64,000 bases of DNA from an uncultured Planctomycetaceae bacterium (GCA_964428895.1 CAYRZU010000007.1:688-64687), one strand, 5' to 3'. Shown: positions 21,848 through 45,319, counted from the first letter of the stretch. Notes: generated by a model not told the origin, from the sequence alone. Numbers and translations are program-made.

Positions 21848-22591
21848 ATGGCCGGCAAGCTCGACATCCCCGTCATCTTCACGACCAAGCGCGTGCCCTT
21901 CCGCCTGTGGGGTTCGATCACGCTGATCGTGTTGATCGTGGTCGGCTACTTCGCGTTCATGAACAACTGGTACGATCTGTTCTGGCCGAAGCAATGGGGC
22001 GCGGTCGAAGCCGGCCACGTCTACCGTTGCAACAAGATCTACCCCCACCTGACGCGGAAGGTGCTGAAGTCCAAGGGCGTTCAGGTGGTCGTCAACATGG
22101 AAGGCCTCGATCCGGATGATAAGTTCCAACGGGCCGAAATCAAGACCTGCGACGAGCTCGGCATTGAACTCGAACGCTTCCCCATGAAGGGCAACGGCAT
22201 CCCCGGCAACACGGACCTATCGGCCGCTCTGGACCGGTACGCCGCCGCGCTGGCCGCTGTGGTTGAGGCCCGGCGAAGCGGCAAGGTGGTGCTGATCCAA
22301 TGCGGGGCCGGCCGACACCGCACCGGTGGCATGACGGCCATGTACCAGATGCTGTTCCTGGGCGCGTCCGGACCGGACGCCTACGGCGAGCTTCGCCGGT
22401 ACGGCTGGAAAGCCCGAAAGCACCAGATTCTGCCCGACTGGCTCAACGCCAACATGGCCGAAATCGTCCGGCGACTGGTTGAGCGGGGCCTCATGGAAGG
22501 CGCCCCGGACCCCCTGCCATATCTGGCTCCCGAAGGGGCCGAGGTCGTCCGGAAAGACCCCGCCGCCGTTCACGCCGAAGCGATTCGCTAG
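21848..22591 (+). CDS. Membrane-anchored protein-tyrosine/dual-specificity phosphatase (CX5R active site)
   Basis: Start at ATG 21848 with an AAGGAG Shine-Dalgarno. A transmembrane segment (ITLIVLIVVGYFAF) is followed by the phosphatase P-loop VLIQCGAGRHRTGG. Confidence 0.75.
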   Translation: MAGKLDIPVIFTTKRVPFRLWGSITLIVLIVVGYFAFMNNWYDLFWPKQWGAVEAGHVYRCNKIYPHLTRKVLKSKGVQVVVNMEGLDPDDKFQRAEIKTCDELGIELERFPMKGNGIPGNTDLSAALDRYAAALAAVVEARRSGKVVLIQCGAGRHRTGGMTAMYQMLFLGASGPDAYGELRRYGWKARKHQILPDWLNANMAEIVRRLVERGLMEGAPDPLPYLAPEGAEVVRKDPAAVHAEAIR

Positions 22592-24264
22592 TTCCGCTTC
22601 TGCCGGGGGATCAGCTCCAGCAACCGGTAGTCGCGGCTGGAGGACTTCTTGAGGCTGGCGAGCATTCGCGGCCTGAGGGCCTTGAACTGTCCGGCCCTGC
22701 GCATCTCCTCCTGCACGACCCCCGAGACGATCAGGTACTCCGCCCCATGTTCGGGCAGCGTGCCCAGATCGACATAGTGGATCTCATGGGCCACATAGAA
22801 CAAGAAGGAGGGGTGCTCGCCGCGTTTGAAGTAGATGGGTTTGCCGGGCGGCACGGTCTGGTCCACCTGGGCCGCCGCCGGGCGACGGCGTTCGAAAGAG
22901 GGTGTCAGTTTCGGGCCGAACACGGCCAGGTGACCGACGACGATAATCATCAGCACCGCCTGGACCACGGACTGACGCATCGTGCCCTGGAAGGTATAGA
23001 GCTTTGGCCCGGCCGCCAGTGTGGCCGCCAAACTGAAGGCCGTTAGCACGCTCCCCCAGAGCCAGCACTCCATCACGATCGTCGCGGCGGCGGCTACGGC
23101 CGTGGCGGCGATCAGCAACGTCATCAGCACGTGCCGCCACAGCAGGTCTTCGTACCATTTCAGGCGGTATTGGCTGAGCGTCCAGCCCACCAGGAGCGCC
23201 GCCAGCGGGAACACCGGAATCGCATACCGCGCCCGAGCCCCCGGAATCAGGCTCACCATGGCCACGGTCGCCACCAACAGCGCCAATCGGGCGCCCTTGA
23301 ATGTCCGCCAATGATCGGTACTGCGAATCCGCTCCATGATGCTGCGTTTCCACAGGGCGATCAGGAAGATGGTCCACGGCAGGAAGTAGATTAGCAGTCG
23401 TCCGCCGCTGCCGAAGGAGTTCCGCAACCACAGCAGCGCGAAGGACCCCTGCTTCGGCCGGCTGGCGCGCTTGGCGGTCTCGGAGAACCAGGTCGACGTC
23501 ATCAGCTCGCGCTCGGCGGCGGTGGCCTGCTCGAACGCCATCGCCACCCACCCGCCGGTAATGCCCACCATCAGCAGCACGCACGCCAGATGACGGAGGC
23601 TGAGCAGGTCCTTGAGGCGCCGTTCATAGGCCAGAACGGAGATCACCGTGACATAGAACACCACCAGGTGCATCGGAGGTTTGGTGATCATGCCCAAACC
23701 CAGCAGCACGCCCGCGCCCAGCCACATCGACCAGCCGGCCCGGTTTCGACTCCAGCCGCTCAGCCACCACAGCACCGCCATGCCGGTCAGGCACACGTAG
23801 GGGCCCTCAATCTCGGCGAGGCGCCCTTTTTCGATGATGCTGATGCACGTCATGAACACCATCGCCGTGATGAACCGCCCCTTGGCCGTCAGCCACGCGC
23901 AGCGCGTCAGCAGTACATGAAGCGCGAAGATCAGCACGAACAACGACCCCACCACCCGGGCCGTCGCCTCGGTGCGTTCGCCCGTAATCGCGAACGACGC
24001 CGCAATGCACCAGTTGATCAGCGGCGGCTTATTGAAGTAAGGCGCATCGGCGATGTGCGGCAAGGCCCATTGGCCATGGTCGAGCATGTGCATAGCCGGC
24101 CAGATGCGGGTGGACTCCTCCCCCTTCAGCTCGATCACGCCGAGCCCGGGCAGGTACAGGCCGGCCCAGACCGCCGCCACCACCAGTACCGAGATCATCA
24201 CAATGCGGCGAGGCGGGCGGTTTTGGTCCCACGGGCTAGGATTGTTCAAGGCGTCCGTCATCAT
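22588..24264 (-). CDS. Glycosyltransferase family 39/83 (ArnT/PMT-like) membrane glycosyltransferase
   Basis: 558 aa, polytopic. The N-terminal loop has YFNKPPLINW, a GT-C/ArnT-PMT-type motif. There are about 11-13 transmembrane helices. Confidence 0.65.
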   Translation of the reverse strand: MMTDALNNPSPWDQNRPPRRIVMISVLVVAAVWAGLYLPGLGVIELKGEESTRIWPAMHMLDHGQWALPHIADAPYFNKPPLINWCIAASFAITGERTEATARVVGSLFVLIFALHVLLTRCAWLTAKGRFITAMVFMTCISIIEKGRLAEIEGPYVCLTGMAVLWWLSGWSRNRAGWSMWLGAGVLLGLGMITKPPMHLVVFYVTVISVLAYERRLKDLLSLRHLACVLLMVGITGGWVAMAFEQATAAERELMTSTWFSETAKRASRPKQGSFALLWLRNSFGSGGRLLIYFLPWTIFLIALWKRSIMERIRSTDHWRTFKGARLALLVATVAMVSLIPGARARYAIPVFPLAALLVGWTLSQYRLKWYEDLLWRHVLMTLLIAATAVAAAATIVMECWLWGSVLTAFSLAATLAAGPKLYTFQGTMRQSVVQAVLMIIVVGHLAVFGPKLTPSFERRRPAAAQVDQTVPPGKPIYFKRGEHPSFLFYVAHEIHYVDLGTLPEHGAEYLIVSGVVQEEMRRAGQFKALRPRMLASLKKSSSRDYRLLELIPRQKRN

Positions 24265-29775: not shown

Positions 29776-31203
29776 CTAGATGGTGTGAACCACCACGGTG
29801 TTGATCGTTCCGCTCTTGCCCAGCGGGCGGCCGGAAACGACCAGGACTTTCTCGCCCGCCTTGGCCCAGCGGAGGCGGCGGATTTCCTTGCCGGCGATGG
29901 CCAGCACTTCCCGCGTGTGCTCACACGCCGGCGCCAGGCGACCCAGCACACCATAGAGCAGGCACATCTGCTGGGCGACGCGCTGCGACCGCGTCAGACC
30001 CAGAATCGGAACGGGCAGTTGCATCTTCGACAGCGCCACCGCCGTGCCGCCGGAGATTGTCAGCACGGCCACGGCCTTGACCGCGTCGTGGGCCACCAGC
30101 GACCGGACAGCCTCGGCAATCGCCAACAGATTACCAGCGTCGGAGTCGGCGTGGAGCCTCGGCCCGTACTGACGCTGGTCGCAGACCTCGGCCTGGAACG
30201 CGTCGGCCTTAGCGACCACGCGCTCCATCATCTGCACCGCTCGGGCCGGGTACTTGCCGATGGCGGTCTCCCCCGAAAGCATCACCGCATCGGCCCCATC
30301 CAATGCAGCGTTGGCCACGTCGGAGACCTCCGCGCGGGTCGGGCTGGGATGCTCGGTCATGCTCTCCAGCATCTGGGTCGCCACAATGCACACCTTGCCC
30401 GCCCGGGAGGCATGGTGGACGAGCCGTTTCTGGGCGATGGGCACTTCCGGAAGGCTCATCTCCACCCCCAAATCGCCGCGCGCAACCATAATGCCGTCGG
30501 CGGCGTCGAGGATGGCGTGGATATTCCGTAGGGCCTGGGGCTTTTCGATCTTGGCGATGATCTTGGCGTCGCTGCCGCCGGCGCGGAGGATCTTCCGAAG
30601 CTGCTTGACGTCCGCGGCGCGGCTGACGAAAGATAGCGCCACGTAGTCAACGTCCTGCTTGGCCAGCCAGCGGGCGTCGGATCGGTCCTTTTCCGTCAGG
30701 GCCGACAGCTTCAGGTTGGTCTTGGGCACATTTACGCCCTTGCCGCTAGCGAGGATGCCGCCGACCACCACCTGACACTGCAGGTTCTTGCCGGCCTCGC
30801 GGTCGACCACCTTCAACTCGATCTTGCCGTCGTCCAGCCGGATGCGATGGCCGATCCGGGCCGCATCGATCAGTTCCGGCAAGGTAGTGCTGATCTTTCG
30901 GGCCGTGCCGACAATCGCCTTTCGCTGAATCGTCAGCTCCGCGCCTTCAGCCAGCAGAGCGCTGCCGCCGGTGATCTTGCCCACGCGGATTTTCGGCCCG
31001 CATAGGTCGGCCATCACGCCCAGCGGCTCGCCGACTTCCTTGGAGACGTTTCGGACGCATTTAAGCATTCGTGCATGGTCGTCCCGGTGGCCGTGGGAGA
31101 AGTTCAGCCGAAAGACATCCGCCCCGGCCCGGACCAGCCGCCGCAACATCGGCAGTTCGCCACTGGCCGGACCCAGCGTTGAAACGATCTTCGTCCTGAT
31201 CAT
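29776..31203 (-). CDS. pyk: Pyruvate kinase
   Basis: Start at ATG 31201-31203 (MIRTKIVSTLGPAS...) with an AAGGGAG Shine-Dalgarno. Motifs present are RLNFSHG and the MVARGDLGVE region. Confidence 0.9.
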   Translation of the reverse strand: MIRTKIVSTLGPASGELPMLRRLVRAGADVFRLNFSHGHRDDHARMLKCVRNVSKEVGEPLGVMADLCGPKIRVGKITGGSALLAEGAELTIQRKAIVGTARKISTTLPELIDAARIGHRIRLDDGKIELKVVDREAGKNLQCQVVVGGILASGKGVNVPKTNLKLSALTEKDRSDARWLAKQDVDYVALSFVSRAADVKQLRKILRAGGSDAKIIAKIEKPQALRNIHAILDAADGIMVARGDLGVEMSLPEVPIAQKRLVHHASRAGKVCIVATQMLESMTEHPSPTRAEVSDVANAALDGADAVMLSGETAIGKYPARAVQMMERVVAKADAFQAEVCDQRQYGPRLHADSDAGNLLAIAEAVRSLVAHDAVKAVAVLTISGGTAVALSKMQLPVPILGLTRSQRVAQQMCLLYGVLGRLAPACEHTREVLAIAGKEIRRLRWAKAGEKVLVVSGRPLGKSGTINTVVVHTI

Positions 31204-31343
31204 CAGAGCGTGGCTCCCTTGACGGCCCGTCCGTCGGTTAGGCTTCGAAGATAGCCCCTGACGGGCAAGGGGGCAAGGCTTGCCCGTTGCAGCCGGGCGG
31301 CGGAGTCCGTATACTGACGATCTTTGCTGGGAAGGAAAAGACG

Positions 31344-31481
31344 ATGGGACGTAGACGCGACCGTAAAGATCAGCGACTGGAAAACCAGATAGCGACTCGC
31401 CGCAAGAACGCGAAGCGCAAGGAACGTGAACGCGCCCGCAAGGCGGCCAAAGCCGCCGCTGCCGCCGAAGCCGCCGCCTGA
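31344..31481 (+). CDS. Hypothetical small highly basic protein (45 aa, Arg/Lys/Ala-rich)
   Basis: ATG at 31344 is preceded by GGAAGGAAAAG. The product is MGRRRDRKDQRLENQIATRRKNAKRKERERARKAAKAAAAAEAAA. No family recognised. Confidence 0.4.
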   Translation: MGRRRDRKDQRLENQIATRRKNAKRKERERARKAAKAAAAAEAAA

Positions 31482-31561
31482 GGTCGTTCTGAATCGCCAC
31501 CAGGCCGTTGCAGCCCGCTATGGCCTGCGCTTGGTCTCGCGCGCCCATCGATAGCGGTTCT

Positions 31562-34500
31562 ATGAGGGGCTTGAAGACATCCGTCGCCGTTGCGCTGGTG
31601 TTGTCGGTCCTGGCTCTGGCGCCGACGGCGTCCGCGGCCGGCCCGGCCACTGCCGCCGATCTGGCCGACCAGCGCCAGGCGATCTGGTCGGCCGAACTCC
31701 TGGCCGCCTACGCCGCCGCCGAATCCGACCCCCCAGAGCCGTGGGACGCCGACGCCCGAGCTTTCCTGGCCAACATCGCCCGGTGGCTGGCCGCCGATGC
31801 CGATCTGCCCCGAGCTGTCCCCGCCGCCACGCTCGAAGCCGCCGGCCGGACGCTGCTCGCCAACGGCTGTGACAATCCGGCAATCTGGGGCGCCTACGGC
31901 CTGGTCCTCGCCAAGCAAGGCCTGTACGGCGAGGCCGCGGCGATTTTGGCCGAGGCCATTGCCGCGACCGACGACCTCGCCGCCGCCGACCTGCTGCGCG
32001 GCCTTCTGGCCGGGGCCCAGTCCGAAGCAATGAAGCGGCTGGGTGAGCCCGACCTGGCCACCCACTACATCCGGCAGGCCTCCAGCCATTTCGCCCGAGC
32101 GCTCGGCCAGACCTACGCCCGCGACGACCACCAACGCGCCGTGCTGCAGCTGATCCGCCGCCATTGGTTCGACGCCTTGCCGGTCGACGGAAAATGGATA
32201 TTCCTCCAGCGTTGTGAGGATCGGAACGATACGCCGGTGTGGACGTTTCGAATGTTAGGCGGGCTCTACCTAGCGGCCAACGCCGACGTCGTCATCGACC
32301 AGAGCCTTGCCCCCGCCGGCGGGGGGGAGGTCGCCGCCCAGCCCGGGTGGCAAGCCATGAGCGTCTTCGCAGCCGCCTTGGACGACCGGGCCGACCGACC
32401 CGAGGCCGCCGCCGAAATCCTCCGCCTGGTGGCCCATCGGCTGGTCCTGAGCTCCGTTGATCCGGGAGCGATCTTCACACGAGGCGCCGCAGCCCAACGG
32501 GATTACCGGCCGATCTATGCCAATTTCGCCGCCGCCCGTGAGAGCCTATCCCTCTGGCGCGACTACGACAAGACTGCCGATGCCCTGAGCATCTTCGCCG
32601 CCTATTGCCTCCGGTCCGGCTACAATTCCGCGGCTCCCACGCTGACCTACCCGCTCATTCTCCAAGCGGGACAGTTGCGGGGTCGCGGCGCCCGCGCCAG
32701 TCTGAACCAACCGGCCAACCAGGACAGCATGGACCGACTTACAGCCGGCTACGCCGCCGAGGACCTCGACGCCCCCGTGGCGGCCCGGGTGCGGCTGATC
32801 GCCGCCGCCGCTGCCTTCGCCCGGGGGCAGTGGCCCCAAGCTCGCGCCCAGTTGGACGCGATACCCCATCTGACCGACCACTCGGAGATGATCGACCAGA
32901 TCCTCGGCGTCTTCAACATGCCGGCCGCGGCTGTGGTGGGCCGTATCTATGCCGAGACCTCCGATCACGCCGACGCCCTGGCCGACGCCCGGCGACAGGT
33001 CCGCGCCGAGGAGTATGACCAGGCTGTGGCTTCGCTTCACGCGATCGCCGCCCAGAACCACGACAACGGCTGGGTGATGGCCTATCTGCGGCATGCCGTT
33101 CGCCATGTCCTGATTACCCGGGATCTCAAGGCCGGCGGCTGGGTCTCCATCGCCCCCTTCCCCGATCAGCGGTACTGGCGGACCGACCGCGGACGAGCCT
33201 GGGTCGATTCGACCGGTGATTGGGTCGCCGATCCCAAGGCCGGGCCCACCGCCGCCGTTTGCACCACGCCGTTCGGTCCGCGCGTGGAGTTGCGAGCGGA
33301 TGTGGACTTGGGTCCCGATCATGCCGGCGCCACCGCACTTCTGTTCGGATACGAGGGCTGGTTGAGTCGCTGGCACGCCGTGGTGCTCGACGGCAAGACG
33401 CAATCCCTCGACGTTCGCCGATGTTGGCCGGCCCCCAGGCCCAACACACTCACCGCCGGGCTCGAGGCTGTCAGCCGAGTCAACCTTCTTCTCGATCGGG
33501 GGGAGATTACCCTCTACGTCAACGACAAGGCCGTCGTGTCCGGCTGGCGACCGGGCCCCTGGCGGACCGACCTGCTTGCACTCATGGGCTTGGCCGTCGG
33601 ATCGGCAGGAGCCGACCAACCACTCGCCCGGGCCCGCAACGTCCAAGTCCGTCGATTGCCCGATGACGCCACCGGTGACAATCGCGACGCCACCAGTGAC
33701 CCCGTCGCCCCCATCGACCCGACCTTTGCCGGCTACGACGACCTGCCGACCACCGACCAGCAGAACCGGACCGTCGTGGCCGGCGCAGCCGACGGCGATG
33801 AGGCCAGCGATCACTGCCCCGGGCCCGGTTGGCTGGCTGGGTTGCGAATCGCCATCACGTCCGATTCCACCGGCCCGGGGGTTGAAGCCGTTGAACCGGT
33901 CTACCAAACGCCCATCGGCCTACGCAACGGGCGACGGTTCGGGCAAGGCCGAGCCCCTCTCGTCGACGTGCTCGCCCGAGACGGCTTCGCGCTCGGCGGG
34001 CTGGTGGTTCACGGCCACGACGGCGTGACCGGCCTGCAGGCAATCTTCCTGCGAATCAACGCCGACGGGACATTGGATGCCGGGACCCGCTACCACAGCC
34101 AGCTATACGGCCGCCCGTCCGATGCACCCCAGCAACTGGGCGTTGACGGCCGGGCCGTCATGGGCATCGTCGGCCGCGTCGGCCCAGACCTGCGAGCGAT
34201 CGGACTGATCACCACCGACGCGCCCAACATCGCCGGGCAGACCATCCGCCCGCCGCTGGGCCTCGGGCTAGTGGCGCCGGCCAAGCCGAATCTGGTCCCC
34301 ATCGGTGACACCGTGACGGAGCTCAACGGCCTCTACTATCGCCATGTCGACCTGCCCGTCAGCTTGGCCGAGGCCCAGCGACGATGTGAAGCGCTCGGCG
34401 GGCGACTGGCCATCGCCGACAGTCGCGCCCTCAGCAACTTCCTGTTCGGCCTGGCCGACGGCCAGCCCTGCTGGGTGGGCGTAACCCGAACGGCTGCCGG

Positions 34501-35575
34501 CGCCTGGCAAGGTGTGGACGGCCGACCTGTCGCCCTGGACTACTGGGTCGGCGACCCGCCCGCCGAGCCGGCCCCCGGCGCCGCAGCCGCGATTGGCTTC
34601 GATGGCGAGGCCGCCTGGGCCCTCACCAGCCCTCACGCGCGGCGGAGCTTCGTCTGCCAATGGGATGCCGATCCGCGCGTCGACCCCGAGCCCGTACCGG
34701 CCGGGCCGGTCGTCGAAATGGTCGGCCATGACGTTATCTACGACGGCCATCGATATCGCGCGTTCGATCAACCAACCACCTGGCCGGAAGCCATGGCCAT
34801 ATGTCGCCAACTCGGCGGCGACCTAGTTACCATCGACAGCGAGGCCGAGAACCAAGCGGTCACCTTGCTGGTCGGCGACCGTCGCTATTTCATCGGCGCG
34901 ACCGACGAAGCCGAGGAAGGCTACTGGCAGTGGGTGGACGGCCGACCGGTCGAATACGCCGCCTGGGCCGACGGCGAGCCCAACAACATGGGCGGACAGC
35001 AGCACGTGGCCCTGATCGGTCACGTCGCGCCCCACGCCTGGGACGATCTCAATCCCGCCGAGCCGATCGGCTTTATCTGCGAATGGTCGGACGCGTCCGC
35101 CCAGCCCCCGGATGCACCCGGCCCGCTGCCCGTCGACACCACGGGTGCTTTCAAATTCGGCGAACACTGGTACAAGGTTTTCTACGAGGCCGTCACCTGG
35201 AACGAAGCTCGCGCCGCCTGCGATCGCCTGGGCGGGCGGTTGACCCGTGTCGAAGACGAACCCACGCGCGAATTGGTCCGGATGCTGGCGCGGCCAGACC
35301 GACCCTTGTGGATCGGCGCGTCTCGACCCGACAAGGTCCTCCCCTGGGTCTGGACCGATGGCACCGTGATCGAAAGCTGGGAGACGCCCAATGGGACCGA
35401 CGAGCTCATCGCCGCCGTCGTCGGTTTGGCCAGAGACGGCCGTTGGCAGATCGTCGTCGGGTCCAAGAGGCACGGCTCCGTCTGCCAGTGGAACACCGAC
35501 CCCAGCGCAACCACCCGGCCCGACCCGGCCCCGGAGAGCACCCATGACCCCGCCGAACAGCCCCCAACAGATTGA
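31562..35575 (+). CDS. Large secreted protein with three tandem C-terminal C-type lectin-like domains
   Basis: Signal peptide MRGLKTSVAVALVLSVLALAPTASAAG. The three C-type lectin-like domains contain CEALGGRLA...WVGV...CQW, CRQLGGDLV...EPNNMGGQQHVALI...WDD...CEW, and CDRLGGRLT...CQW. The central domain has the EPN/WDD Ca-mannose-type motifs. The N-terminal 900 aa is Ala/Leu-rich and unassigned. Confidence 0.75.
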   Translation: MRGLKTSVAVALVLSVLALAPTASAAGPATAADLADQRQAIWSAELLAAYAAAESDPPEPWDADARAFLANIARWLAADADLPRAVPAATLEAAGRTLLANGCDNPAIWGAYGLVLAKQGLYGEAAAILAEAIAATDDLAAADLLRGLLAGAQSEAMKRLGEPDLATHYIRQASSHFARALGQTYARDDHQRAVLQLIRRHWFDALPVDGKWIFLQRCEDRNDTPVWTFRMLGGLYLAANADVVIDQSLAPAGGGEVAAQPGWQAMSVFAAALDDRADRPEAAAEILRLVAHRLVLSSVDPGAIFTRGAAAQRDYRPIYANFAAARESLSLWRDYDKTADALSIFAAYCLRSGYNSAAPTLTYPLILQAGQLRGRGARASLNQPANQDSMDRLTAGYAAEDLDAPVAARVRLIAAAAAFARGQWPQARAQLDAIPHLTDHSEMIDQILGVFNMPAAAVVGRIYAETSDHADALADARRQVRAEEYDQAVASLHAIAAQNHDNGWVMAYLRHAVRHVLITRDLKAGGWVSIAPFPDQRYWRTDRGRAWVDSTGDWVADPKAGPTAAVCTTPFGPRVELRADVDLGPDHAGATALLFGYEGWLSRWHAVVLDGKTQSLDVRRCWPAPRPNTLTAGLEAVSRVNLLLDRGEITLYVNDKAVVSGWRPGPWRTDLLALMGLAVGSAGADQPLARARNVQVRRLPDDATGDNRDATSDPVAPIDPTFAGYDDLPTTDQQNRTVVAGAADGDEASDHCPGPGWLAGLRIAITSDSTGPGVEAVEPVYQTPIGLRNGRRFGQGRAPLVDVLARDGFALGGLVVHGHDGVTGLQAIFLRINADGTLDAGTRYHSQLYGRPSDAPQQLGVDGRAVMGIVGRVGPDLRAIGLITTDAPNIAGQTIRPPLGLGLVAPAKPNLVPIGDTVTELNGLYYRHVDLPVSLAEAQRRCEALGGRLAIADSRALSNFLFGLADGQPCWVGVTRTAAGAWQGVDGRPVALDYWVGDPPAEPAPGAAAAIGFDGEAAWALTSPHARRSFVCQWDADPRVDPEPVPAGPVVEMVGHDVIYDGHRYRAFDQPTTWPEAMAICRQLGGDLVTIDSEAENQAVTLLVGDRRYFIGATDEAEEGYWQWVDGRPVEYAAWADGEPNNMGGQQHVALIGHVAPHAWDDLNPAEPIGFICEWSDASAQPPDAPGPLPVDTTGAFKFGEHWYKVFYEAVTWNEARAACDRLGGRLTRVEDEPTRELVRMLARPDRPLWIGASRPDKVLPWVWTDGTVIESWETPNGTDELIAAVVGLARDGRWQIVVGSKRHGSVCQWNTDPSATTRPDPAPESTHDPAEQPPTD

Positions 35576-35726
35576 CATCGATACCGACCTGACGGTCTGC
35601 CCCGAATGCGACTACACCAACGGCTTTCACGTCACCTTCCTCCGTAATGATGACGGCAAGCTGAAGATCATCCTGGTCTGCCCAAGTTGCTCGGCCAAGT
35701 TTGACATAGGCTGGACGACAACATGA
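35544..35726 (+). CDS. Small zinc-ribbon protein (CxxC...CxxC), 60 aa
   Basis: ATG 35544 with a GGAGAG Shine-Dalgarno. Cys pairs are CPEC and CPSC. It overlaps the 3' end of the lectin gene and its stop overlaps the xthA start (ATGA). Confidence 0.5.
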   Translation: MTPPNSPQQIDIDTDLTVCPECDYTNGFHVTFLRNDDGKLKIILVCPSCSAKFDIGWTTT

Positions 35727-36487
35727 AGATCGTCACCTGGAACGTCAACTCCGTTCGCTCGCGACTGGAACGACTGCTGGCGTTGCTGGCCCGTGACCAG
35801 CCGGATGTGGTCTGCCTGCAAGAACTCAAGTGCGTTGAGGATGACTTCCCCGCCGACGCCATCGCCGCGGCCGGCTACTCTTCGGCCGTCTACGGGCAGA
35901 AGACTTACAACGGCGTGGCCATCCTGTCGCGCAAGAAGCTCATCGGCGTTACGCGGGGCTTTGGCGATGACGATCCCCAGGCCCGCTTCATTGCCGGCAA
36001 GCTGGGCAAGCTTCACATCGCCAGCGCCTATGTCCCCAACGGCCGAGAGGTCGGATGCGAACATTGGGCCTACAAGCTGCACTGGCTCACCAGGCTGCGT
36101 GAATGGTTGGACGAAGTCGCCGGGCCCGCCGCGCCCGTCGTCGTCTGCGGCGATTTCAACGTAGCCCGAGACGATCTCGATGCCGCCAATCCCGACAAAT
36201 GGCAGGACACCGTTCTCTGTCACGCCGACGGCCGAGCCGCTTTGCGGGCGCTGCTCGACTGGCCCTTGGTGGATGTCTTCCGAGACCACCACCCCGACGG
36301 TGGCGTATTCACCTGGTGGGACTACCGACGCTTGGCCTTTCCCAAGAACAACGGCCTGCGGATCGACTACGTCCTGGCCACGCCTACGCTGGCCAAGCTC
36401 TGCACCGATGCCCAGGTCGATCGCAACGAGCGCAAGGGTGAGAAGCCCTCCGACCACGCCCCGGTCATCGCGACCTTTGACCTCTAG
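35723..36487 (+). CDS. xthA: Exodeoxyribonuclease III
   Basis: MKIVTWNVNS...QELK...NGREV...GDFN...DHAPV. These are the AP-endonuclease family 1 motifs. Confidence 0.9.
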   Translation: MKIVTWNVNSVRSRLERLLALLARDQPDVVCLQELKCVEDDFPADAIAAAGYSSAVYGQKTYNGVAILSRKKLIGVTRGFGDDDPQARFIAGKLGKLHIASAYVPNGREVGCEHWAYKLHWLTRLREWLDEVAGPAAPVVVCGDFNVARDDLDAANPDKWQDTVLCHADGRAALRALLDWPLVDVFRDHHPDGGVFTWWDYRRLAFPKNNGLRIDYVLATPTLAKLCTDAQVDRNERKGEKPSDHAPVIATFDL

Positions 36488-36525
36488 GCGGGCCGGCGTT
36501 AAGCTCTCGGCCCCGAGGGCATCCG

Positions 36526-37482
36526 ATGCGGGCGAAACGCCAAATGCAATTCTATCCGTGGGTGTGGGTGGGCCTGTCACTGTGGCTGGCCGCCGGCTGC
36601 ACGCGCCCGGCCCCCTACGGCCGGCCGAAACTGATCGGCGAACTGGCCGACCAGCGCATTCACGAAAGCTCCGGCTTGGCCGCCAGCCGCCGCACGCCCG
36701 GCGTGCTGTGGACCCACAACGACTCCGGCAATCCACCCCAGCTATTCGCCATCGATACCCAAGGCCAGGCCCTGGCCACCGTCGCCATCACCGGCGAGAG
36801 GGTCAAGAACGTCGACTGGGAGGACATCTGCTCCTACCAACTCGACGGCCAGCCCTTCCTGCTGATCGCCGACATCGGTGACAACACCGCCCAACGCAAG
36901 CGCTGCCAGCTCTACATTATCCCCGAGCCGCAGATCGACCCGACCCAACTCGGCCAGACGCTCTCGGCGGAGGTCCAGGCAACCGTTGTCATTCGCTTCC
37001 CTGACGGCCCGCGCAACTGTGAAGCCGTCGCCGTAGACGCCTCTGCTCGGAAGAGACAAGGAATCTACCTGGCCAGCAAGAGCGTCATCGGCCTTTCCAA
37101 CGTCTACCGAGTCGTTCTCCCAGCCAGCGACTACCGGGGAGAATTGGCCGCTGTCGTGGGCGGGAGCATGACGCGGATGCCGGGCTCGACCTTTGCGCCC
37201 AGCCGCATCGCTGCCCCCTGGGTCCCCATGGTCACCGCCATGGACATCTCCCCGGACGGCCGACGCGCCGTGCTGGCCACCTACGACCGCGCTTACGAGT
37301 ACACCCGCAACGACGACGAAACCTGGGGTGACGCATTTTCTCGGAGCGGCCGACCGATTACACTGCCCCCACGTCGCCAGGGAGAAGCGATCTGCTACAG
37401 CCACGACGGCCGACGCCTGTACCTGACCAGCGAGCACTTACCGGCCCCGCTATGGATGCTGCCGGTGATTGAAGATGAGTGA
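36526..37482 (+). CDS. Lipoprotein with predicted beta-propeller (SdiA-regulated/YjiK- or phytase-like family)
   Basis: Lipobox LAAGC. Repeated motifs HESSGLA, WTHNDSG, LFAID and DIGDN. The family call is tentative. Confidence 0.4.
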   Translation: MRAKRQMQFYPWVWVGLSLWLAAGCTRPAPYGRPKLIGELADQRIHESSGLAASRRTPGVLWTHNDSGNPPQLFAIDTQGQALATVAITGERVKNVDWEDICSYQLDGQPFLLIADIGDNTAQRKRCQLYIIPEPQIDPTQLGQTLSAEVQATVVIRFPDGPRNCEAVAVDASARKRQGIYLASKSVIGLSNVYRVVLPASDYRGELAAVVGGSMTRMPGSTFAPSRIAAPWVPMVTAMDISPDGRRAVLATYDRAYEYTRNDDETWGDAFSRSGRPITLPPRRQGEAICYSHDGRRLYLTSEHLPAPLWMLPVIEDE

Positions 37483-37494
37483 ACGGAGTCTGCC

Positions 37495-38682
37495 ATGAAG
37501 TATGTCATCGTCATTCCGGACGGCTTGGCCGACCAGCGCCTGGATGAGCTGGGCAAGATGACGCCGCTCGAGGCGGCCGAAACGCCCAACATCGACTGGC
37601 TCGGCGCGAACGGCCGACTTGGCACGGTCGCCTACAGCGACAAGCGTCACCCGGTCGGCCGGGCCCAGGCCCTGCTAACGCTGCTGGGCTATGACATGCG
37701 GCGCACGCCCATCGGCAGCGCCGCCCTGGAGGCCCTGGGCGCCGGCCTCGACGACGCCGCCACCGACCATTTCTACCACTGCAACCTGGTAACCGTCACC
37801 GACCGCGTCCTGATCGACGCCGCCGCCGGGAGAATCTCCGACTCCGAAGCCCAAGCCGTCGTCGCCTTGCTCAACGAACACCTCGCGCCCGGGCGTCTAA
37901 CGTTCCACTACGGTCGGCAGCATCGCCACCTGATGAACACGCCGGAGGCGCTGGATGTCCAGACCACCTGCCCGTATGAGGTTCAAGGCAAGTCCATCCG
38001 CCGTGGCCGCGTCAGGGGCACAGACGCCGAGCGACTCCAGGAGATTATGGACCTCGCCGCGGCGGCCCTGGCCGACCACGAGATCAACGCCATCCGCCGT
38101 GAACTGGGCGAAAGCCCCATCACCGGCGTGTGGCTATGGGGAGAAGGGCCGTTAACGCCCCTGCCTAGCTTCGCCGACCGAACCGGCCTGAGCGGCGCGA
38201 TGGTCAGCCTCGATCCGTTGGCGGTCGGCGTCGCCCGCCATATCGGTTGGGATGTGGTCGACATCGACGCTCAAGATCACTACACTGACGCGGCTATGGC
38301 GGCCCTGGCGGGAAGCGCCGTTGAGGCCGTCGACACCTACGACGTGGTGTGCATTCACACGGCCTGGCCGGATGCGGCGGCCCTGGCCGGAGACCTTCGC
38401 GGCAAGTTGGAGGCCACGGAATCACTCGATCGACACGTGATCGGCGACCTGCTGAGGCGCCTGCGGAAAGTCGAGCCGAGCTGGCGATTGCTGATCGCCC
38501 CGGCCCAGACCACTGGGGCGGTCTCCCGGCAGCGGACGGCAGCGCCCGCCCCGTTCGTGCTGACCGGCCAAGGCGTGGAGAGCGTGCTTCACAAGCCGTT
38601 CTATGAAGCAACGGCCCAGGCGGCCGACCTGCAGATCAAGCGGGCCTGGGAACTGATGGAGTTTGTTCTAACGGTGAGATAG
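37495..38682 (+). CDS. apgM: Cofactor-independent phosphoglycerate mutase, archaeal-type (ApgM, alkaline-phosphatase superfamily)
   Basis: MKYVIVIPDGLADQRLDELG... matches the ApgM N-terminus. About 395 aa with metal-binding Asp/His residues throughout. Confidence 0.75.
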   Translation: MKYVIVIPDGLADQRLDELGKMTPLEAAETPNIDWLGANGRLGTVAYSDKRHPVGRAQALLTLLGYDMRRTPIGSAALEALGAGLDDAATDHFYHCNLVTVTDRVLIDAAAGRISDSEAQAVVALLNEHLAPGRLTFHYGRQHRHLMNTPEALDVQTTCPYEVQGKSIRRGRVRGTDAERLQEIMDLAAAALADHEINAIRRELGESPITGVWLWGEGPLTPLPSFADRTGLSGAMVSLDPLAVGVARHIGWDVVDIDAQDHYTDAAMAALAGSAVEAVDTYDVVCIHTAWPDAAALAGDLRGKLEATESLDRHVIGDLLRRLRKVEPSWRLLIAPAQTTGAVSRQRTAAPAPFVLTGQGVESVLHKPFYEATAQAADLQIKRAWELMEFVLTVR

Positions 38683-43418: not shown

Positions 43419-43567
43419 CGACACGTATCTCCGTTGGTGGATCGGCAAGGGTCAACTCTAGCGGGCCGGGCCCGGCCGGTCAAGGGAACGGCCTTGGCTC
43501 GCGAAAGACCGATTTTTGTCCTGCGGCCTTGGCTGTTGGGAGCGTAGAAGCTAAGGTGGTTCCTTCT

Positions 43568-45319
43568 ATGGCAGATGTTTCCGACACCCCCGGCGTACCG
43601 CGTCGCGGCTGGCAGGCCGAAGTGGCCGCCATTCGCCACACGGTCGAGAGCATCGGCGTCGCCATCGTGTTGGCCTTCGTGCTGCGCGCTTTCCTGATCG
43701 AGGCGTTCGTGATCCCGACCGGCTCGATGGCGCCGAACCTGATGGGCCAGCACCGCGAATTGCTGTGCCCGCACTGCGGATGGGCGTTCGATTTCGGCTA
43801 TGTGGCCCAAGAGGAAGCTCGCCGCCAGGAACAAGCAAAGTTCCGCAGGAGCGGCTCGACGCAGACCTTGGCGATATGCCCCAATTGCCTGCGCCCCTAT
43901 CCTCGTTCGCAGACTCATTGGACCGTCCCTCGAAGCGGGGACCGGGTGCTGGTGGTCAAGTACCTCTATAACTTCGTCGATCCCGAACCGTGGGACGTAG
44001 TGGTCTTCCGCAACCCCCAGAATAACCGGGAGAACTTCATTAAGCGGCTGGTGGGCCTGCCCGGGGAGACCATCGAGATCCTTCGCGGCGATCTCTGGTT
44101 CAAGGCGCCCGAATCGGGCCAGTGGGACATTCGCCGAAAGCCCCCCGACGTCCAGGAGGCCATGTGGGACGTCGTCTTCGACAACGACTATCCCCCCAAG
44201 TCCAATAGCGATTATCGCCCCGTGCGCAAGTATCCGGCGCGGGGGTGGTTCGCGGCCGTCGGAGACGAAACCAGTTGGGACCTCCAAGGCGACCAGGGCC
44301 GACGCTTCCGGTTCAACGGTCACGGTGACGCCGCGTCGCTGGCTTTCGAGCCCGGGAATGGCAACTTTTTCCCCTTCTTCGCCTACAATTACAACCCTCA
44401 AGACCGGTCCCGGGTCAGCCACGACTACAATGCCGGGATCTGCTCGGACCTGAAGCTCTCGGTCGTCTTCATGCCCCAGGCCGACGACAGCCGTCTCTTG
44501 CTCCGGCTGGAGGCCCTGGATCACGCCTTCGTCGCCGAGGTGGCCGCTGACGGGGCCGTTCGGCTCTGGCAGAGAGATCGAGACGGTCTGCCGGCCAATC
44601 AGCCCTCCTCCGATCGGCCCACGAAAGATACCTGGCAGCTGTGGGGACAGACATCCGTATCTCCCATCCGGCCCGGGACAGGACGCCAGATTGCCCTGGT
44701 CAACGCCGACTACCAGGCCCAGGTCTGGGTGGACGGGAAGGTGGTTCTGGAATCGACCGACGAGCAATACCCGGCCGACCGTGACGCCCTCCTGAAGCGT
44801 CTGACCGGCGAGGCCCTGCAGGCCAATCCTCTGCGGCCGACCTGGGTGTCCTTAGCGGCCGAGGGCGGCCCCAGCGACCTGCTCCACCTCCGGCTGGACC
44901 GTGACGTCTACTACACCTATCATGGACTGCTCCCCCCGGAACATCCCACCAACATCTACGCCAAGGCGCATCCGATTTACGGCGGTCGGAGGAATTGGAA
45001 GGGCCAGCCGGGCTGGGGGGTTGCCGGCAACCCAATAACTATCCCCGAAGACAGTTTTTACGTCCTTGGCGACAACAGCCCCGCCAGCTTCGATTCGCGA
45101 GGCTGGACGCAAGTAGCCCCCACGGTTACGCCCGCGGCCTCGGATCCCGAAGCCTACAAGCTCGATCCATCGGCTTGGACCTACAAGTTGGGAACCGTCC
45201 CGCGACGAAACATGATCGGCAAGGCCGTGTTCGTGTACTGGCCGGCGGGCTTCTCCGCGCCGCTTCTGCCCAACTTGCCGCTGGTGCCCAATGTGGGTAG
45301 AATGCGGCTGATTCGCTAG
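43568..45319 (+). CDS. lepB: Signal peptidase I (LepB), unusually long, with a Cys4 insertion
   Basis: ATG 43568 with an AAGGTGG Shine-Dalgarno. Box B is IPTGSMAPNL and box E is YVLGDNSPASFDSRGW. A CPHCGW...CPNC insertion sits between the boxes. Total 583 aa. Confidence 0.8.
   Translation: MADVSDTPGVPRRGWQAEVAAIRHTVESIGVAIVLAFVLRAFLIEAFVIPTGSMAPNLMGQHRELLCPHCGWAFDFGYVAQEEARRQEQAKFRRSGSTQTLAICPNCLRPYPRSQTHWTVPRSGDRVLVVKYLYNFVDPEPWDVVVFRNPQNNRENFIKRLVGLPGETIEILRGDLWFKAPESGQWDIRRKPPDVQEAMWDVVFDNDYPPKSNSDYRPVRKYPARGWFAAVGDETSWDLQGDQGRRFRFNGHGDAASLAFEPGNGNFFPFFAYNYNPQDRSRVSHDYNAGICSDLKLSVVFMPQADDSRLLLRLEALDHAFVAEVAADGAVRLWQRDRDGLPANQPSSDRPTKDTWQLWGQTSVSPIRPGTGRQIALVNADYQAQVWVDGKVVLESTDEQYPADRDALLKRLTGEALQANPLRPTWVSLAAEGGPSDLLHLRLDRDVYYTYHGLLPPEHPTNIYAKAHPIYGGRRNWKGQPGWGVAGNPITIPEDSFYVLGDNSPASFDSRGWTQVAPTVTPAASDPEAYKLDPSAWTYKLGTVPRRNMIGKAVFVYWPAGFSAPLLPNLPLVPNVGRMRLIR

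Follow-up and report, generated by a model that had tools for sequence, protein, structure and literature searches.

The question raised by this locus is what an uncultured planctomycete might do with a very large protein that ends in three C-type lectin domains and is encoded directly upstream of an exodeoxyribonuclease gene. The window, i.e., the whole stretch of 64,000 nucleotides analyzed here, carries the gene at 31562..35575 on the plus strand, which is also that of its domains, the zinc-ribbon gene, and xthA described below. Its 1338 codons include the stop, so that the product has 1337 amino acids, one fewer than a previous sequence-only reading had counted. The proposal of the same reading that this protein is secreted agrees well with its N-terminus, MRGLKTSVAVALVLSVLALAPTASA|AGP, which by inspection resembles a Sec-type signal peptide (aa 1-25; 31562..31636) with a basic N-terminus, a hydrophobic core, and A-S-A, after which cleavage is predicted. 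Hydrophobic leader sequences also begin the orthologs L084, P0005, P0006, and P0008. Reading the sequence revealed neither a lipobox Cys at the signal peptide nor a C-terminal hydrophobic segment, and no cell-anchoring signal was recognized.

We propose, with a probability of roughly 0.6, that the gene product is an exported, non-catalytic, and multivalent carbohydrate-binding protein of a Phycisphaerae-like planctomycete. The LeuRS encoded in the window is 72% identical to those of Planctomycetaceae/Phycisphaerae MAGs, one ortholog (P0004) carries the label Phycisphaerae bacterium, and a GC3 of 0.81, similar to that of the neighboring genes, indicates that the composition of the lectin gene is native. 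An identical protein (P0001) and a 78% ortholog (P0002) were found in metagenomes. Purifying selection is evident for the gene as a whole (dN/dS 0.27 against the L001 ortholog) and for each domain of the protein (0.15-0.35), and no catalytic family was found in it using Pfam and NCBIfam.

Three C-type lectin domains, one with a sugar-site motif

The C-terminal part of the protein indeed contains three C-type lectin domains (CTLDs) in tandem, as the sequence-only reading had claimed. Pfam Lectin_C (PF00059) matches the whole protein in three stretches (E=1.5e-33, 116 bits), and CTLD1 (aa ~921-1035; 34322..34666), CTLD2 (aa ~1058-1175; 34733..35086), and CTLD3 (aa ~1197-1310; 35150..35491) score 25.3, 65.8, and 39.7 bits, respectively, when each is scanned alone, all above the gathering cutoff of 22.6 bits. 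Neither FGE-sulfatase (PF03781) nor any family besides Lectin_C gave a match at E<=10 in these separate scans, so the lectin assignment stands against the FGE/sulfatase-modifying-factor alternative that had been named beforehand as its refutation. Structure modeling predicts the two helices, two antiparallel sheets, and long loop region of the CTLD fold, and the CTLD secondary-structure pattern is also present in the model of the low-scoring CTLD1. Each domain has a WIGL-type core motif (WVGV971, FIGA1110, and WIGA1250) and one pair of cysteines (C942-C1032, C1081-C1173, and C1220-C1308) that would form the outer C1-C4 disulfide. The cysteines of CTLD2 and CTLD3 are invariant in an alignment of seven sequences, while the pair of CTLD1 is retained in six of them and lost in P0010; an extra cysteine in CTLD1, C970, is not retained by more distant orthologs. 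The paired-cysteine framework described earlier thus holds for the outer pair and fails for the inner C2-C3 pair, which is absent from all three domains and replaced by Val/Ala and Pro/Ala throughout the family. This makes the domains atypical CTLDs that still belong to the superfamily.

CTLD2 is the best conserved of the three in comparison with L084 (56% identity with this 36% ortholog), and its PDB sequence matches include CTLDs of the mannose-receptor family, langerin, SP-D, and MBP-C. Its predicted Ca2+ site segment (34976..35047) comprises EPN (aa 1139-1141; 34976-34984), Gln1147, and WDD (aa 1160-1162; 35039-35047). The mannose-type EPN/WDD site seen by the sequence-only reading is a real and ortholog-conserved motif that is not fully canonical: Of the five Ca-site-2 ligands, CTLD2 has E1139, N1141, and D1162, while Gln1147 and Asp1161 replace Glu and Asn. 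We take these two residues to be the equivalents of E193 and N205 of MBP-A, since the segment can be aligned without gaps to the loops of MBP-A and langerin. The spacing of the EPNN loop is identical to that of MBP-A and langerin. EPNN-x3-Q-[HN]...WDD is invariant in five members of the clade (the window protein, P0002, L084, P0030, and P0061), and a sister clade (P0005, P0006, P0008, and P0010) bears a canonical EPNN-x4-E-N...WND with the same spacing in CTLD3. CTLD1 and CTLD3 of the window protein have no Ca/sugar motif, which in CTLD3 was lost in the window clade. Each family protein retains the motif in a single CTLD, i.e., CTLD2 in the window clade and CTLD3 in the other. This pattern indicates that one sugar site per protein is maintained by selection.

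Animal mannose-type CRDs (MBP-A/C, langerin, DC-SIGN, collectin-11, and SP-D) share with these domains the membership in Lectin_C, the WIG-type core motif, the outer C1-C4 disulfide, and the C-terminal "CxW" strand. Unlike them, the window protein is bacterial, misses the inner C2-C3 disulfide and any collagen or neck region for oligomerization, embeds its CTLDs in a 1337-residue multidomain protein, and has Gln for the Glu ligand and WDD for WND in CTLD2. In CTLD2, the changes from Glu to Gln and from Asn to Asp are reciprocal within the second ligand pair, not unlike the switch from EPN to QPD by which animal C-type lectins pass from mannose to galactose specificity. The unusual combination of EPN with WDD instead of WND is also known from animals, where, according to PMC12842671, scallop MyCLF and Tegillarca TgCTL-1 have EPN/WDD or QPN/WDD and a lectin of the QPN/WDD type is among those listed as Ca-dependent, though these are single-CRD immune lectins. 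Given the Glu-to-Gln and Asn-to-Asp replacements and the lack of the inner, loop-bracing disulfide, binding of Ca2+ and sugar by CTLD2 could nevertheless be lost or altered.

An N-terminal region of three different predicted folds

The sequence-only reading had described the N-terminal 900 residues as helical repeats of unknown function. Helical repeats are confined to aa ~26-530, and the region resolves into a TPR-like alpha-solenoid (aa ~26-525; 31637..33136), a CBM66/DUF1080-like beta-sandwich (aa ~536-700; 33167..33661), and a divergent jacalin-like beta-prism (aa ~750-887; 33809..34222), as predicted by structure models built on shallow alignments of 8 and 27 sequences. The 25-helix solenoid (AF2 model me105b28400dd; pLDDT 83.4, pTM 0.82) matched only generic TPR superhelices such as those of APC/C, OGT, and LGN in Foldseek, and its Pfam TPR matches are sub-threshold, while homologs match TPR families and, in six of 27 cases, DUF4034. 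It is rigidly fused to the sandwich, as judged from the same pTM of 0.82, and the resulting module also stands alone as proteins of ca. 700 residues. The prism domain is predicted to adopt the beta-prism I fold, but Pfam Jacalin (PF01419) has zero matches to this segment at E<=10 and a single, sub-threshold one among ten homologs (P0079, 14.6 bits). Jacalin sugar-binding loops are defined by an N-terminal GG and a C-terminal GxxxD. Many homologs retain GGxGGxxFxD and GxxxD. At these places, the window prism has AADGDEASD and GPDLR. Both the GGxGG of its N-terminus and the sugar loop GxxxD are missing, which also sets it apart from mannose-specific jacalin-related lectins like Heltuba, banana lectin, ZG16, and Parkia lectin. 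The domain is a member of a large unmodeled family of bacteria, whose copies are often arranged as tandem repeats and have Trypsin_2, NfeD, or PA14 domains as fusion partners. With these CBM66/DUF1080-like and jacalin-like folds, the protein would have five lectin- or CBM-type domains and not three.

This architecture bears on whether the CTLDs bind sugars at all. Many animal CTLDs do not, including those of NK receptors, tetranectin, and antifreeze or eggshell proteins. If the CTLDs of the window protein likewise bound proteins or surfaces, EPN/WDD would merely be left over from an earlier sugar site in what is now a TPR-based envelope scaffold, as might be suspected from the two CTLDs without any Ca/sugar motif, the Gln and Asp replacements and missing inner disulfide of CTLD2, and a large solenoid of a kind that typically serves protein interactions. 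We consider this unlikely because EPNN..Q..WDD is invariant among orthologs whose CTLD2 identity is no higher than 36-56%, because the perfect EPN..E..WND in another CTLD of the sister clade would hardly be expected if the Ca/sugar site were not under selection, and because the accompanying CBM66-like and jacalin-like folds similarly point to glycans.

It is a decidedly improbable view that the protein is an enzyme whose sandwich acts like a 3-keto-disaccharide hydrolase (DUF1080) on polysaccharides targeted by the jacalin-like and C-type lectin domains. Phycisphaerae are known to degrade polysaccharides, and 11 of 27 homologs match PF06439. The window sandwich itself, with a predicted concanavalin-like fold, falls below every Pfam threshold and differs from the PF06439 family and CBM66 in its rigid fusion to a 500-residue TPR solenoid. 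Its closest functionally characterized structure is the non-catalytic CBM66, and the only invariant sandwich residues across seven family members are L594, R697, and L699, none of which is an acidic catalytic candidate. Furthermore, the lectin gene is not flanked by CAZyme genes with the exception of a GH4 gene upstream at the P0010 locus.

Linkage to a zinc-ribbon gene and xthA

The lectin gene overlaps by 32 nt with a gene for a 60-residue Cys4 zinc ribbon (CPEC...CPSC; 35544..35726) that in turn overlaps the start of xthA by 4 nt (ATGA, TGA over ATG at 35723), both overlaps having been noted by the sequence-only reading. Its suggestion of co-transcription is plausible given that the overlapping layout recurs among syntenic loci despite lectin identities of 27-38%. 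The zinc-ribbon gene has a dN/dS of 0.22, and its product gave generic zinc-ribbon matches only, all of them sub-threshold. Homologs occupy the corresponding place in L001, L083/L084, L086/L087, and L089/L090, the gene is absent from L088 and the P0010 contig, and a homolog is found in a different gene context in L085. Its neighbor xthA (35723..36487) encodes exodeoxyribonuclease III without a signal peptide (equivalog TIGR00195, 260.1 bits against a cutoff of 182.55; also Pfam Exo_endo_phos). The lectin family was found in metagenomes only, in at least seven lineages, and in all loci found its gene immediately precedes xthA-iPGM-aspartate kinase, in most cases with a stop codon that overlaps the next start codon. 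Identities range from 55-66% for xthA among syntenic loci and from 40-59% for iPGM among seven lineages.

The conservation of this adjacency over such distances, together with SNase and NYN nuclease genes downstream in several loci, could indicate that the lectin, the zinc ribbon, and ExoIII form one system, which would account for the overlap of the genes in all lineages. Such a system might connect the processing of DNA with a signal or substrate from the envelope or from outside the cell, or act as a conflict or defense module. This is very improbable in our view: The lectin has a signal peptide and ExoIII has none, so that they would act in different compartments. The zinc ribbon is missing in two lineages with a homolog elsewhere, and the conserved block also takes in iPGM and aspartate kinase, which looks like housekeeping synteny. 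The linkage therefore looks like conserved operon structure and not shared function, though a role as a lectin leaves the conserved translational coupling to xthA unexplained.

Further upstream, a gene at 22588-24264 that had been read as a GT39 (PMT-like) mannosyltransferase and named as a possible source of mannosylated ligands matches PMT_2 (PF13231, 51 bits) rather than the model of the GT39 PMT family. Unrelated MBL-fold, CstA, ACT, and pyruvate kinase genes separate it from the lectin gene 9 kb away, and no PMT_2-type gene was called in the examined stretches of other lectin loci, which leaves the suggested link to the lectin unsupported.

A conserved family of probable bacterial lectins

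CTLD3 is the fastest-evolving domain of the protein, with 51% identity to P0002 compared to 84-87% for the N-terminal domains and raised dN (0.39) and dS (1.1). That a diversity-generating retroelement (DGR) or frequent recombination has made it a hypervariable domain for ligand binding, as in variable DGR proteins with a CLec fold, is extremely improbable, given that the 64-kb window holds only chance short matches and no template-repeat-like copy of the CTLD-coding sequence, that no reverse-transcriptase match was found among the window genes scanned, that DGR targets have an FGE/Mtd-type CLec fold and not PF00059, and that a dN/dS of 0.35 shows purifying selection.

The best PDB sequence matches of the protein are members of the mannose-receptor family (MRC1, Endo180, DEC-205, PLA2R, and FcRY; E about 1e-40 summed over domains), which also carry tandem CTLDs on one chain with a sugar site in only some of them. 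These have 8-10 CTLDs instead of three as well as a ricin-type CysR domain, FNII, a transmembrane segment, and a cytoplasmic tail that the window protein misses, and nothing in them corresponds to its TPR, CBM66-like, and jacalin-like domains. We rejected membership in this family since Lectin_C was the only part found, with N-terminal domains of other kinds and no C-terminal hydrophobic segment.

As a multivalent carbohydrate-binding protein, the mature form that Sec export would yield is probably tripartite, with a rigid module at the N-terminus that comprises a ca. 500-residue TPR-like solenoid packed on the CBM66/DUF1080-like sandwich, a flexible acidic linker, and a C-terminal string of the jacalin-like prism and three CTLDs with short DPR-type linkers between them. 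For CTLD2, we predict a bound Ca2+ ion that would mediate the binding of sugars of the mannose, GlcNAc, or fucose type, in which the 3- and 4-OH groups are equatorial. CTLD1, CTLD3, and the jacalin-like domain, which have lost canonical sugar-site residues in the window clade, may be spacers or bind other ligands, and the solenoid most likely serves protein-protein contacts such as oligomerization or attachment to an envelope component. Capture of, or adhesion to, polysaccharides or glycoconjugates, either extracellularly or in the periplasm, would be the likely role, with the zinc ribbon and xthA probably inherited as an operon for co-expression and not for any shared biochemical function.

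The window protein thus belongs to a real, conserved bacterial lectin family and is not a new kind of system. A more far-reaching reading, which we regard as possible yet doubtful, is that these proteins would be old, vertically inherited, true Ca2+-dependent C-type lectins of bacteria whose one functional sugar site has shifted from repeat to repeat, being CTLD3 in one clade and CTLD2 in the other. The Glu-to-Gln and Asn-to-Asp exchange may then specify a ligand or sugar orientation undescribed for C-type lectins, and the coupling to ExoIII might be a genuine regulatory or functional tie.

C-type lectin domains and the predicted Ca/sugar site

The gene on the plus strand at window positions 31562 to 35575, with its ATG at 31562 and its stop codon at 35573-35575, encodes a product of 1337 residues that, in the best-supported reading, would be a Sec-exported, non-catalytic and multivalent glycan-binding protein. 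Its N-terminus is a typical Sec leader (MRGLKTSVAVALVLSVLALAPTASA, followed by AGP), in line with the sequence-only reading of a secreted protein, and carries no lipobox cysteine. No anchor signal was recognised in the protein, which may therefore be periplasmic, associated with the cell surface through partners, or released.

The three C-terminal C-type lectin domains proposed from the sequence (CTLD1 to CTLD3; residues ~921-1035, ~1058-1175 and ~1197-1310) were recovered by Pfam, where Lectin_C (PF00059) matches with E=1.5e-33 over three stretches and where the segments, scanned separately, scored 25.3, 65.8 and 39.7 bits, each above the gathering score of 22.6. The alternative named at the outset, an FGE-sulfatase identity, was rejected because Pfam finds nothing but Lectin_C in these segments even at E<=10. 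The paired-cysteine framework ascribed to all three domains is only half present: each has the outer pair (C942/C1032, C1081/C1173 and C1220/C1308), and at the positions of the inner pair, which in canonical CTLDs holds the long loop in place, the whole lectin family has Val/Ala and Pro/Ala. An extra cysteine, C970, is not kept by more distant orthologs. By HMM, fold, core motif and outer disulfide, the domains are members of the CTLD superfamily, atypical relative to canonical CTLDs in lacking the inner disulfide, and their pairwise identity is only 27-35%.

EPN (residues 1139-1141) and WDD (residues 1160-1162) do both lie in the middle domain. The CTLD2 loop GEPNNMGGQQHVA...WDD can be aligned gap-free with EPNN-x4-E-[NH]-C...WND, the reference pattern of MBP-A and langerin, on which our assignment of ligand positions is based. 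Aligned to this pattern, E1139, N1141 and D1162 are canonical ligands, and the second Glu ligand is replaced by Gln1147 and the Asn of WND by Asp1161, so that three of the five ligands of a Ca-dependent mannose-type CRD are canonical and the other two are conservative swaps. The resulting motif, EPNN-x3-Q-[HN]...WDD, is invariant in the window protein, its homologs P0002, P0030 and P0061 and the protein of locus L084, and CTLD2 is the best conserved of the three domains (56% identity to its counterpart in the ortholog that is 36% identical to the window protein). In a sister clade (P0005, P0006, P0008 and P0010) the motif is lost from CTLD2, and CTLD3 instead has a textbook EPN[ND]-x4-E-[ND]...WND. 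That exactly one Ca/sugar site per protein is retained, though in different repeats by clade, argues that the site is functional, and CTLD2 would bind sugars of the Man/GlcNAc/Fuc type in a Ca2+-dependent manner. A scaffold that binds proteins and whose sugar site is vestigial, to which the two swapped ligands and a rigid helical module able to make protein contacts could also be fitted, seems unlikely given this retention. EPN/WDD is known from a scallop lectin, and a clam lectin with QPN/WDD is listed as Ca-dependent (PMC12842671).

N-terminal modules and the jacalin-like family

The 900 residues ahead of the lectin domains had been described as Ala/Leu-rich and helical, which is correct for their first part; instead of a single helical region, they consist of three domains. 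In an AlphaFold model of residues 26-735, resting on 27 homologs (pLDDT 83.4, pTM 0.82), 25 helices precede a beta-sandwich. For the helical part, Foldseek gave generic TPR superhelices only (e.g., APC/C subunits, OGT and LGN), and PF06439 matches 11 of the 27 homologs and DUF4034 six of them, with the window copy below threshold. The third domain is jacalin-like: when a profile built from 30 homologous domains was run against all sequences in the PDB, 15 of 15 matches were jacalin-type lectins (best E=2.6e-5). Counting its three CTLDs, the sandwich and the jacalin-like domain, the window protein thus has a TPR scaffold bearing five folds of lectin/CBM type. A catalytic DUF1080 domain, which would make the protein an enzyme and which the DUF1080/CBM66-like character of the sandwich might suggest, is still less likely; no recognisable catalytic domain was found in the window protein. 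In the glycan-binding reading, the two CTLDs without the motif would, like the CBM66-like sandwich and the degenerate jacalin-like prism, contribute avidity, other specificities or spacing, and the rigid TPR module would serve protein contacts.

The TPR solenoid and the DUF1080/CBM66-like sandwich (window 31637-33661) form an evolutionary module of their own; TPR and sandwich also occur alone in proteins of ~700-750 aa (P0025, P0046, P0063, P0069, P0073 and others), some with a second DUF1080-like domain. The contigs examined for P0025 and P0046 are short. The jacalin-like domain of ~135 aa (window 33809-34222) has relatives in P0012-P0153. At E<=1e-3, an exhaustive HMMER search with residues 28-900 yielded 1035 cluster representatives, and most of the matches listed share the jacalin-like domain only, often in two to four tandem copies and with Trypsin_2 protease, NfeD, PA14/GLEYA or SHD1 domains as fusion partners. 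GGxGGxxFxD and GRxGxxLDAIGLI motifs are preserved in many copies. This large family, which study of the lectin brings to light, has no model in Pfam or NCBIfam.

Gene neighbourhood and selection

As the sequence-only reading had it, a 60-aa CPEC...CPSC zinc-ribbon ORF (35544-35726) shares 32 nt with the lectin gene, and its TGA shares ATGA with the ATG of xthA, an equivalog-level ExoIII gene (TIGR00195, 260 bits versus a cutoff of 182.55). The order lectin, zinc ribbon, xthA and iPGM is common to every lectin locus recovered: that of the window (1337 aa), L001 (P0002, 78% identical), L084 (LAZR01000404.1; 1350 aa, the full-length form of P0004), L083 (Phycisphaerae MAG GCA_011050225.1; P0004, which is the L084 protein cut at the contig 5' end), L086 and L087 (P0005), L089 and L090 (P0006), L088 (P0008) and the P0010 contig. 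The zinc ribbon, 59-63 aa in syntenic loci and overlapping the lectin stop, is missing in L088 and the P0010 contig, where the lectin stop directly overlaps the xthA start. Aspartate kinase follows iPGM where the contig is long enough, with SNase and NYN in several loci, and pyruvate kinase lies upstream on the opposite strand in every contig long enough to include it. The lectin gene appears to be old, vertically inherited and positionally fixed, because this order persists while identities across the syntenic loci are as low as 55-66% for xthA, 40-59% for iPGM and 27-38% for the lectin.

The xthA overlap is the sole feature that the lectin reading leaves unexplained. It might suggest that zinc ribbon, ExoIII and lectin form one true functional unit, which we consider quite improbable; since ExoIII is without a signal peptide, and iPGM and aspartate kinase belong to the conserved block as well, we take the overlap for conserved operon architecture. 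The suggested link with a PMT_2 gene (22588-24264; PF13231, 51 bits) found no support, with unrelated genes in between and no such gene called in the sequenced stretches of other loci. A promoter and terminator scan of 31000-37600 gave nothing above shuffled expectation, one terminator-like site within the lectin gene (35057) being within chance, and Rfam found no RNA families on the whole window.

The lectin's last 10 residues (HDPAEQPPTD; window 35544-35575) are the same in the window protein and P0002 while the adjacent tail diverges, probably because this stretch also encodes the first residues of the zinc-ribbon protein. A homolog of the zinc ribbon (CPVCDYTNGFHVSF...CPNCSS) at 558-749 of L085, a 1.1-kb contig, has no lectin or xthA adjoining, so the small protein exists outside the lectin-xthA operon, too. 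Between pyruvate kinase and lectin genes lies a 45-aa extremely basic ORF (MGRRRDRKDQRLENQIATRRKNAKRKERERARKAAKAAAAAEAAA; 31345-31482, plus strand), and L001 likewise has a 45-aa gene there. Between xthA and iPGM, a 318-aa ORF without Pfam match (36526-37482, plus strand) has counterparts of 312 aa in L082 and 340 aa in L083 and is absent from L086, L088 and L089. Further downstream, an unusually long signal peptidase I homolog (596 aa; 43529-45319, plus strand) contains three Peptidase_S26 stretches and has a 583-aa counterpart in L082.

Against the closest ortholog, dN/dS is 0.15-0.35 by domain and 0.27 overall, and all domains of the protein are under purifying selection. CTLD3 (35150-35491) differs from its L001 counterpart with dN 0.39 and dS 1.1, both ~2x those of the rest of the gene, which hints at recombination with some divergent allele or at a local relaxation of constraint. 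Diversification by a DGR, or any hypervariable receptor, is highly improbable, as no DGR-type template repeat was found within the 64-kb window.

Distribution, origin and meaning

The lectin family was revealed by the exhaustive HMMER search with residues 28-900; word-indexed searches with the whole protein, residues 530-1337 or a 7-sequence alignment had only P0001-P0004 among the matches listed. The same overall build recurs in P0005 (1501 aa), P0006 (1659 aa), P0008 (1391 aa) and P0010 (1442 aa), all ending in two to three Lectin_C domains. A scan of GTDB species representatives found no lectin relative, and LeuRS proteins of MAGs labelled Planctomycetaceae or Phycisphaerae share no more than 72% identity with that of the window. 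With a GC3 of 0.81 (neighbours, 0.81-0.90), the lectin gene is native in composition, and horizontal transfer from animals was rejected on the grounds of this neighbour-like GC3, synteny across deep lineages and the low mutual identity of the CTLDs.

Bacteria rarely have canonical C-type lectin domains of the animal type, which tblastn detected in just 9 of 72,556 plasmid records; to our knowledge, almost none have been tested biochemically, and our literature search on bacterial or planctomycete C-type lectins found no directly relevant paper. The likeness to the mannose-receptor family is limited to tandem CTLDs with few active sites, as its CysR, FNII and TM parts are absent. What is new is the domain architecture and the site variant, not the kind of system. 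The set of TPR, CBM66-like, jacalin-like and three C-type lectin domains is currently annotated merely as hypothetical protein, the source name of all relatives in the lectin family and of those sharing TPR plus sandwich or the jacalin-like domain. The variant ligand set EPN/Q/WDD could inform how C-type specificity is encoded, and the family would offer a natural case of "site migration" between repeats, each molecule having one Ca/sugar site maintained by selection. For planctomycete biology, the lectin is a candidate for glycan capture or adhesion in uncultured Phycisphaerae from sediment and marine settings.
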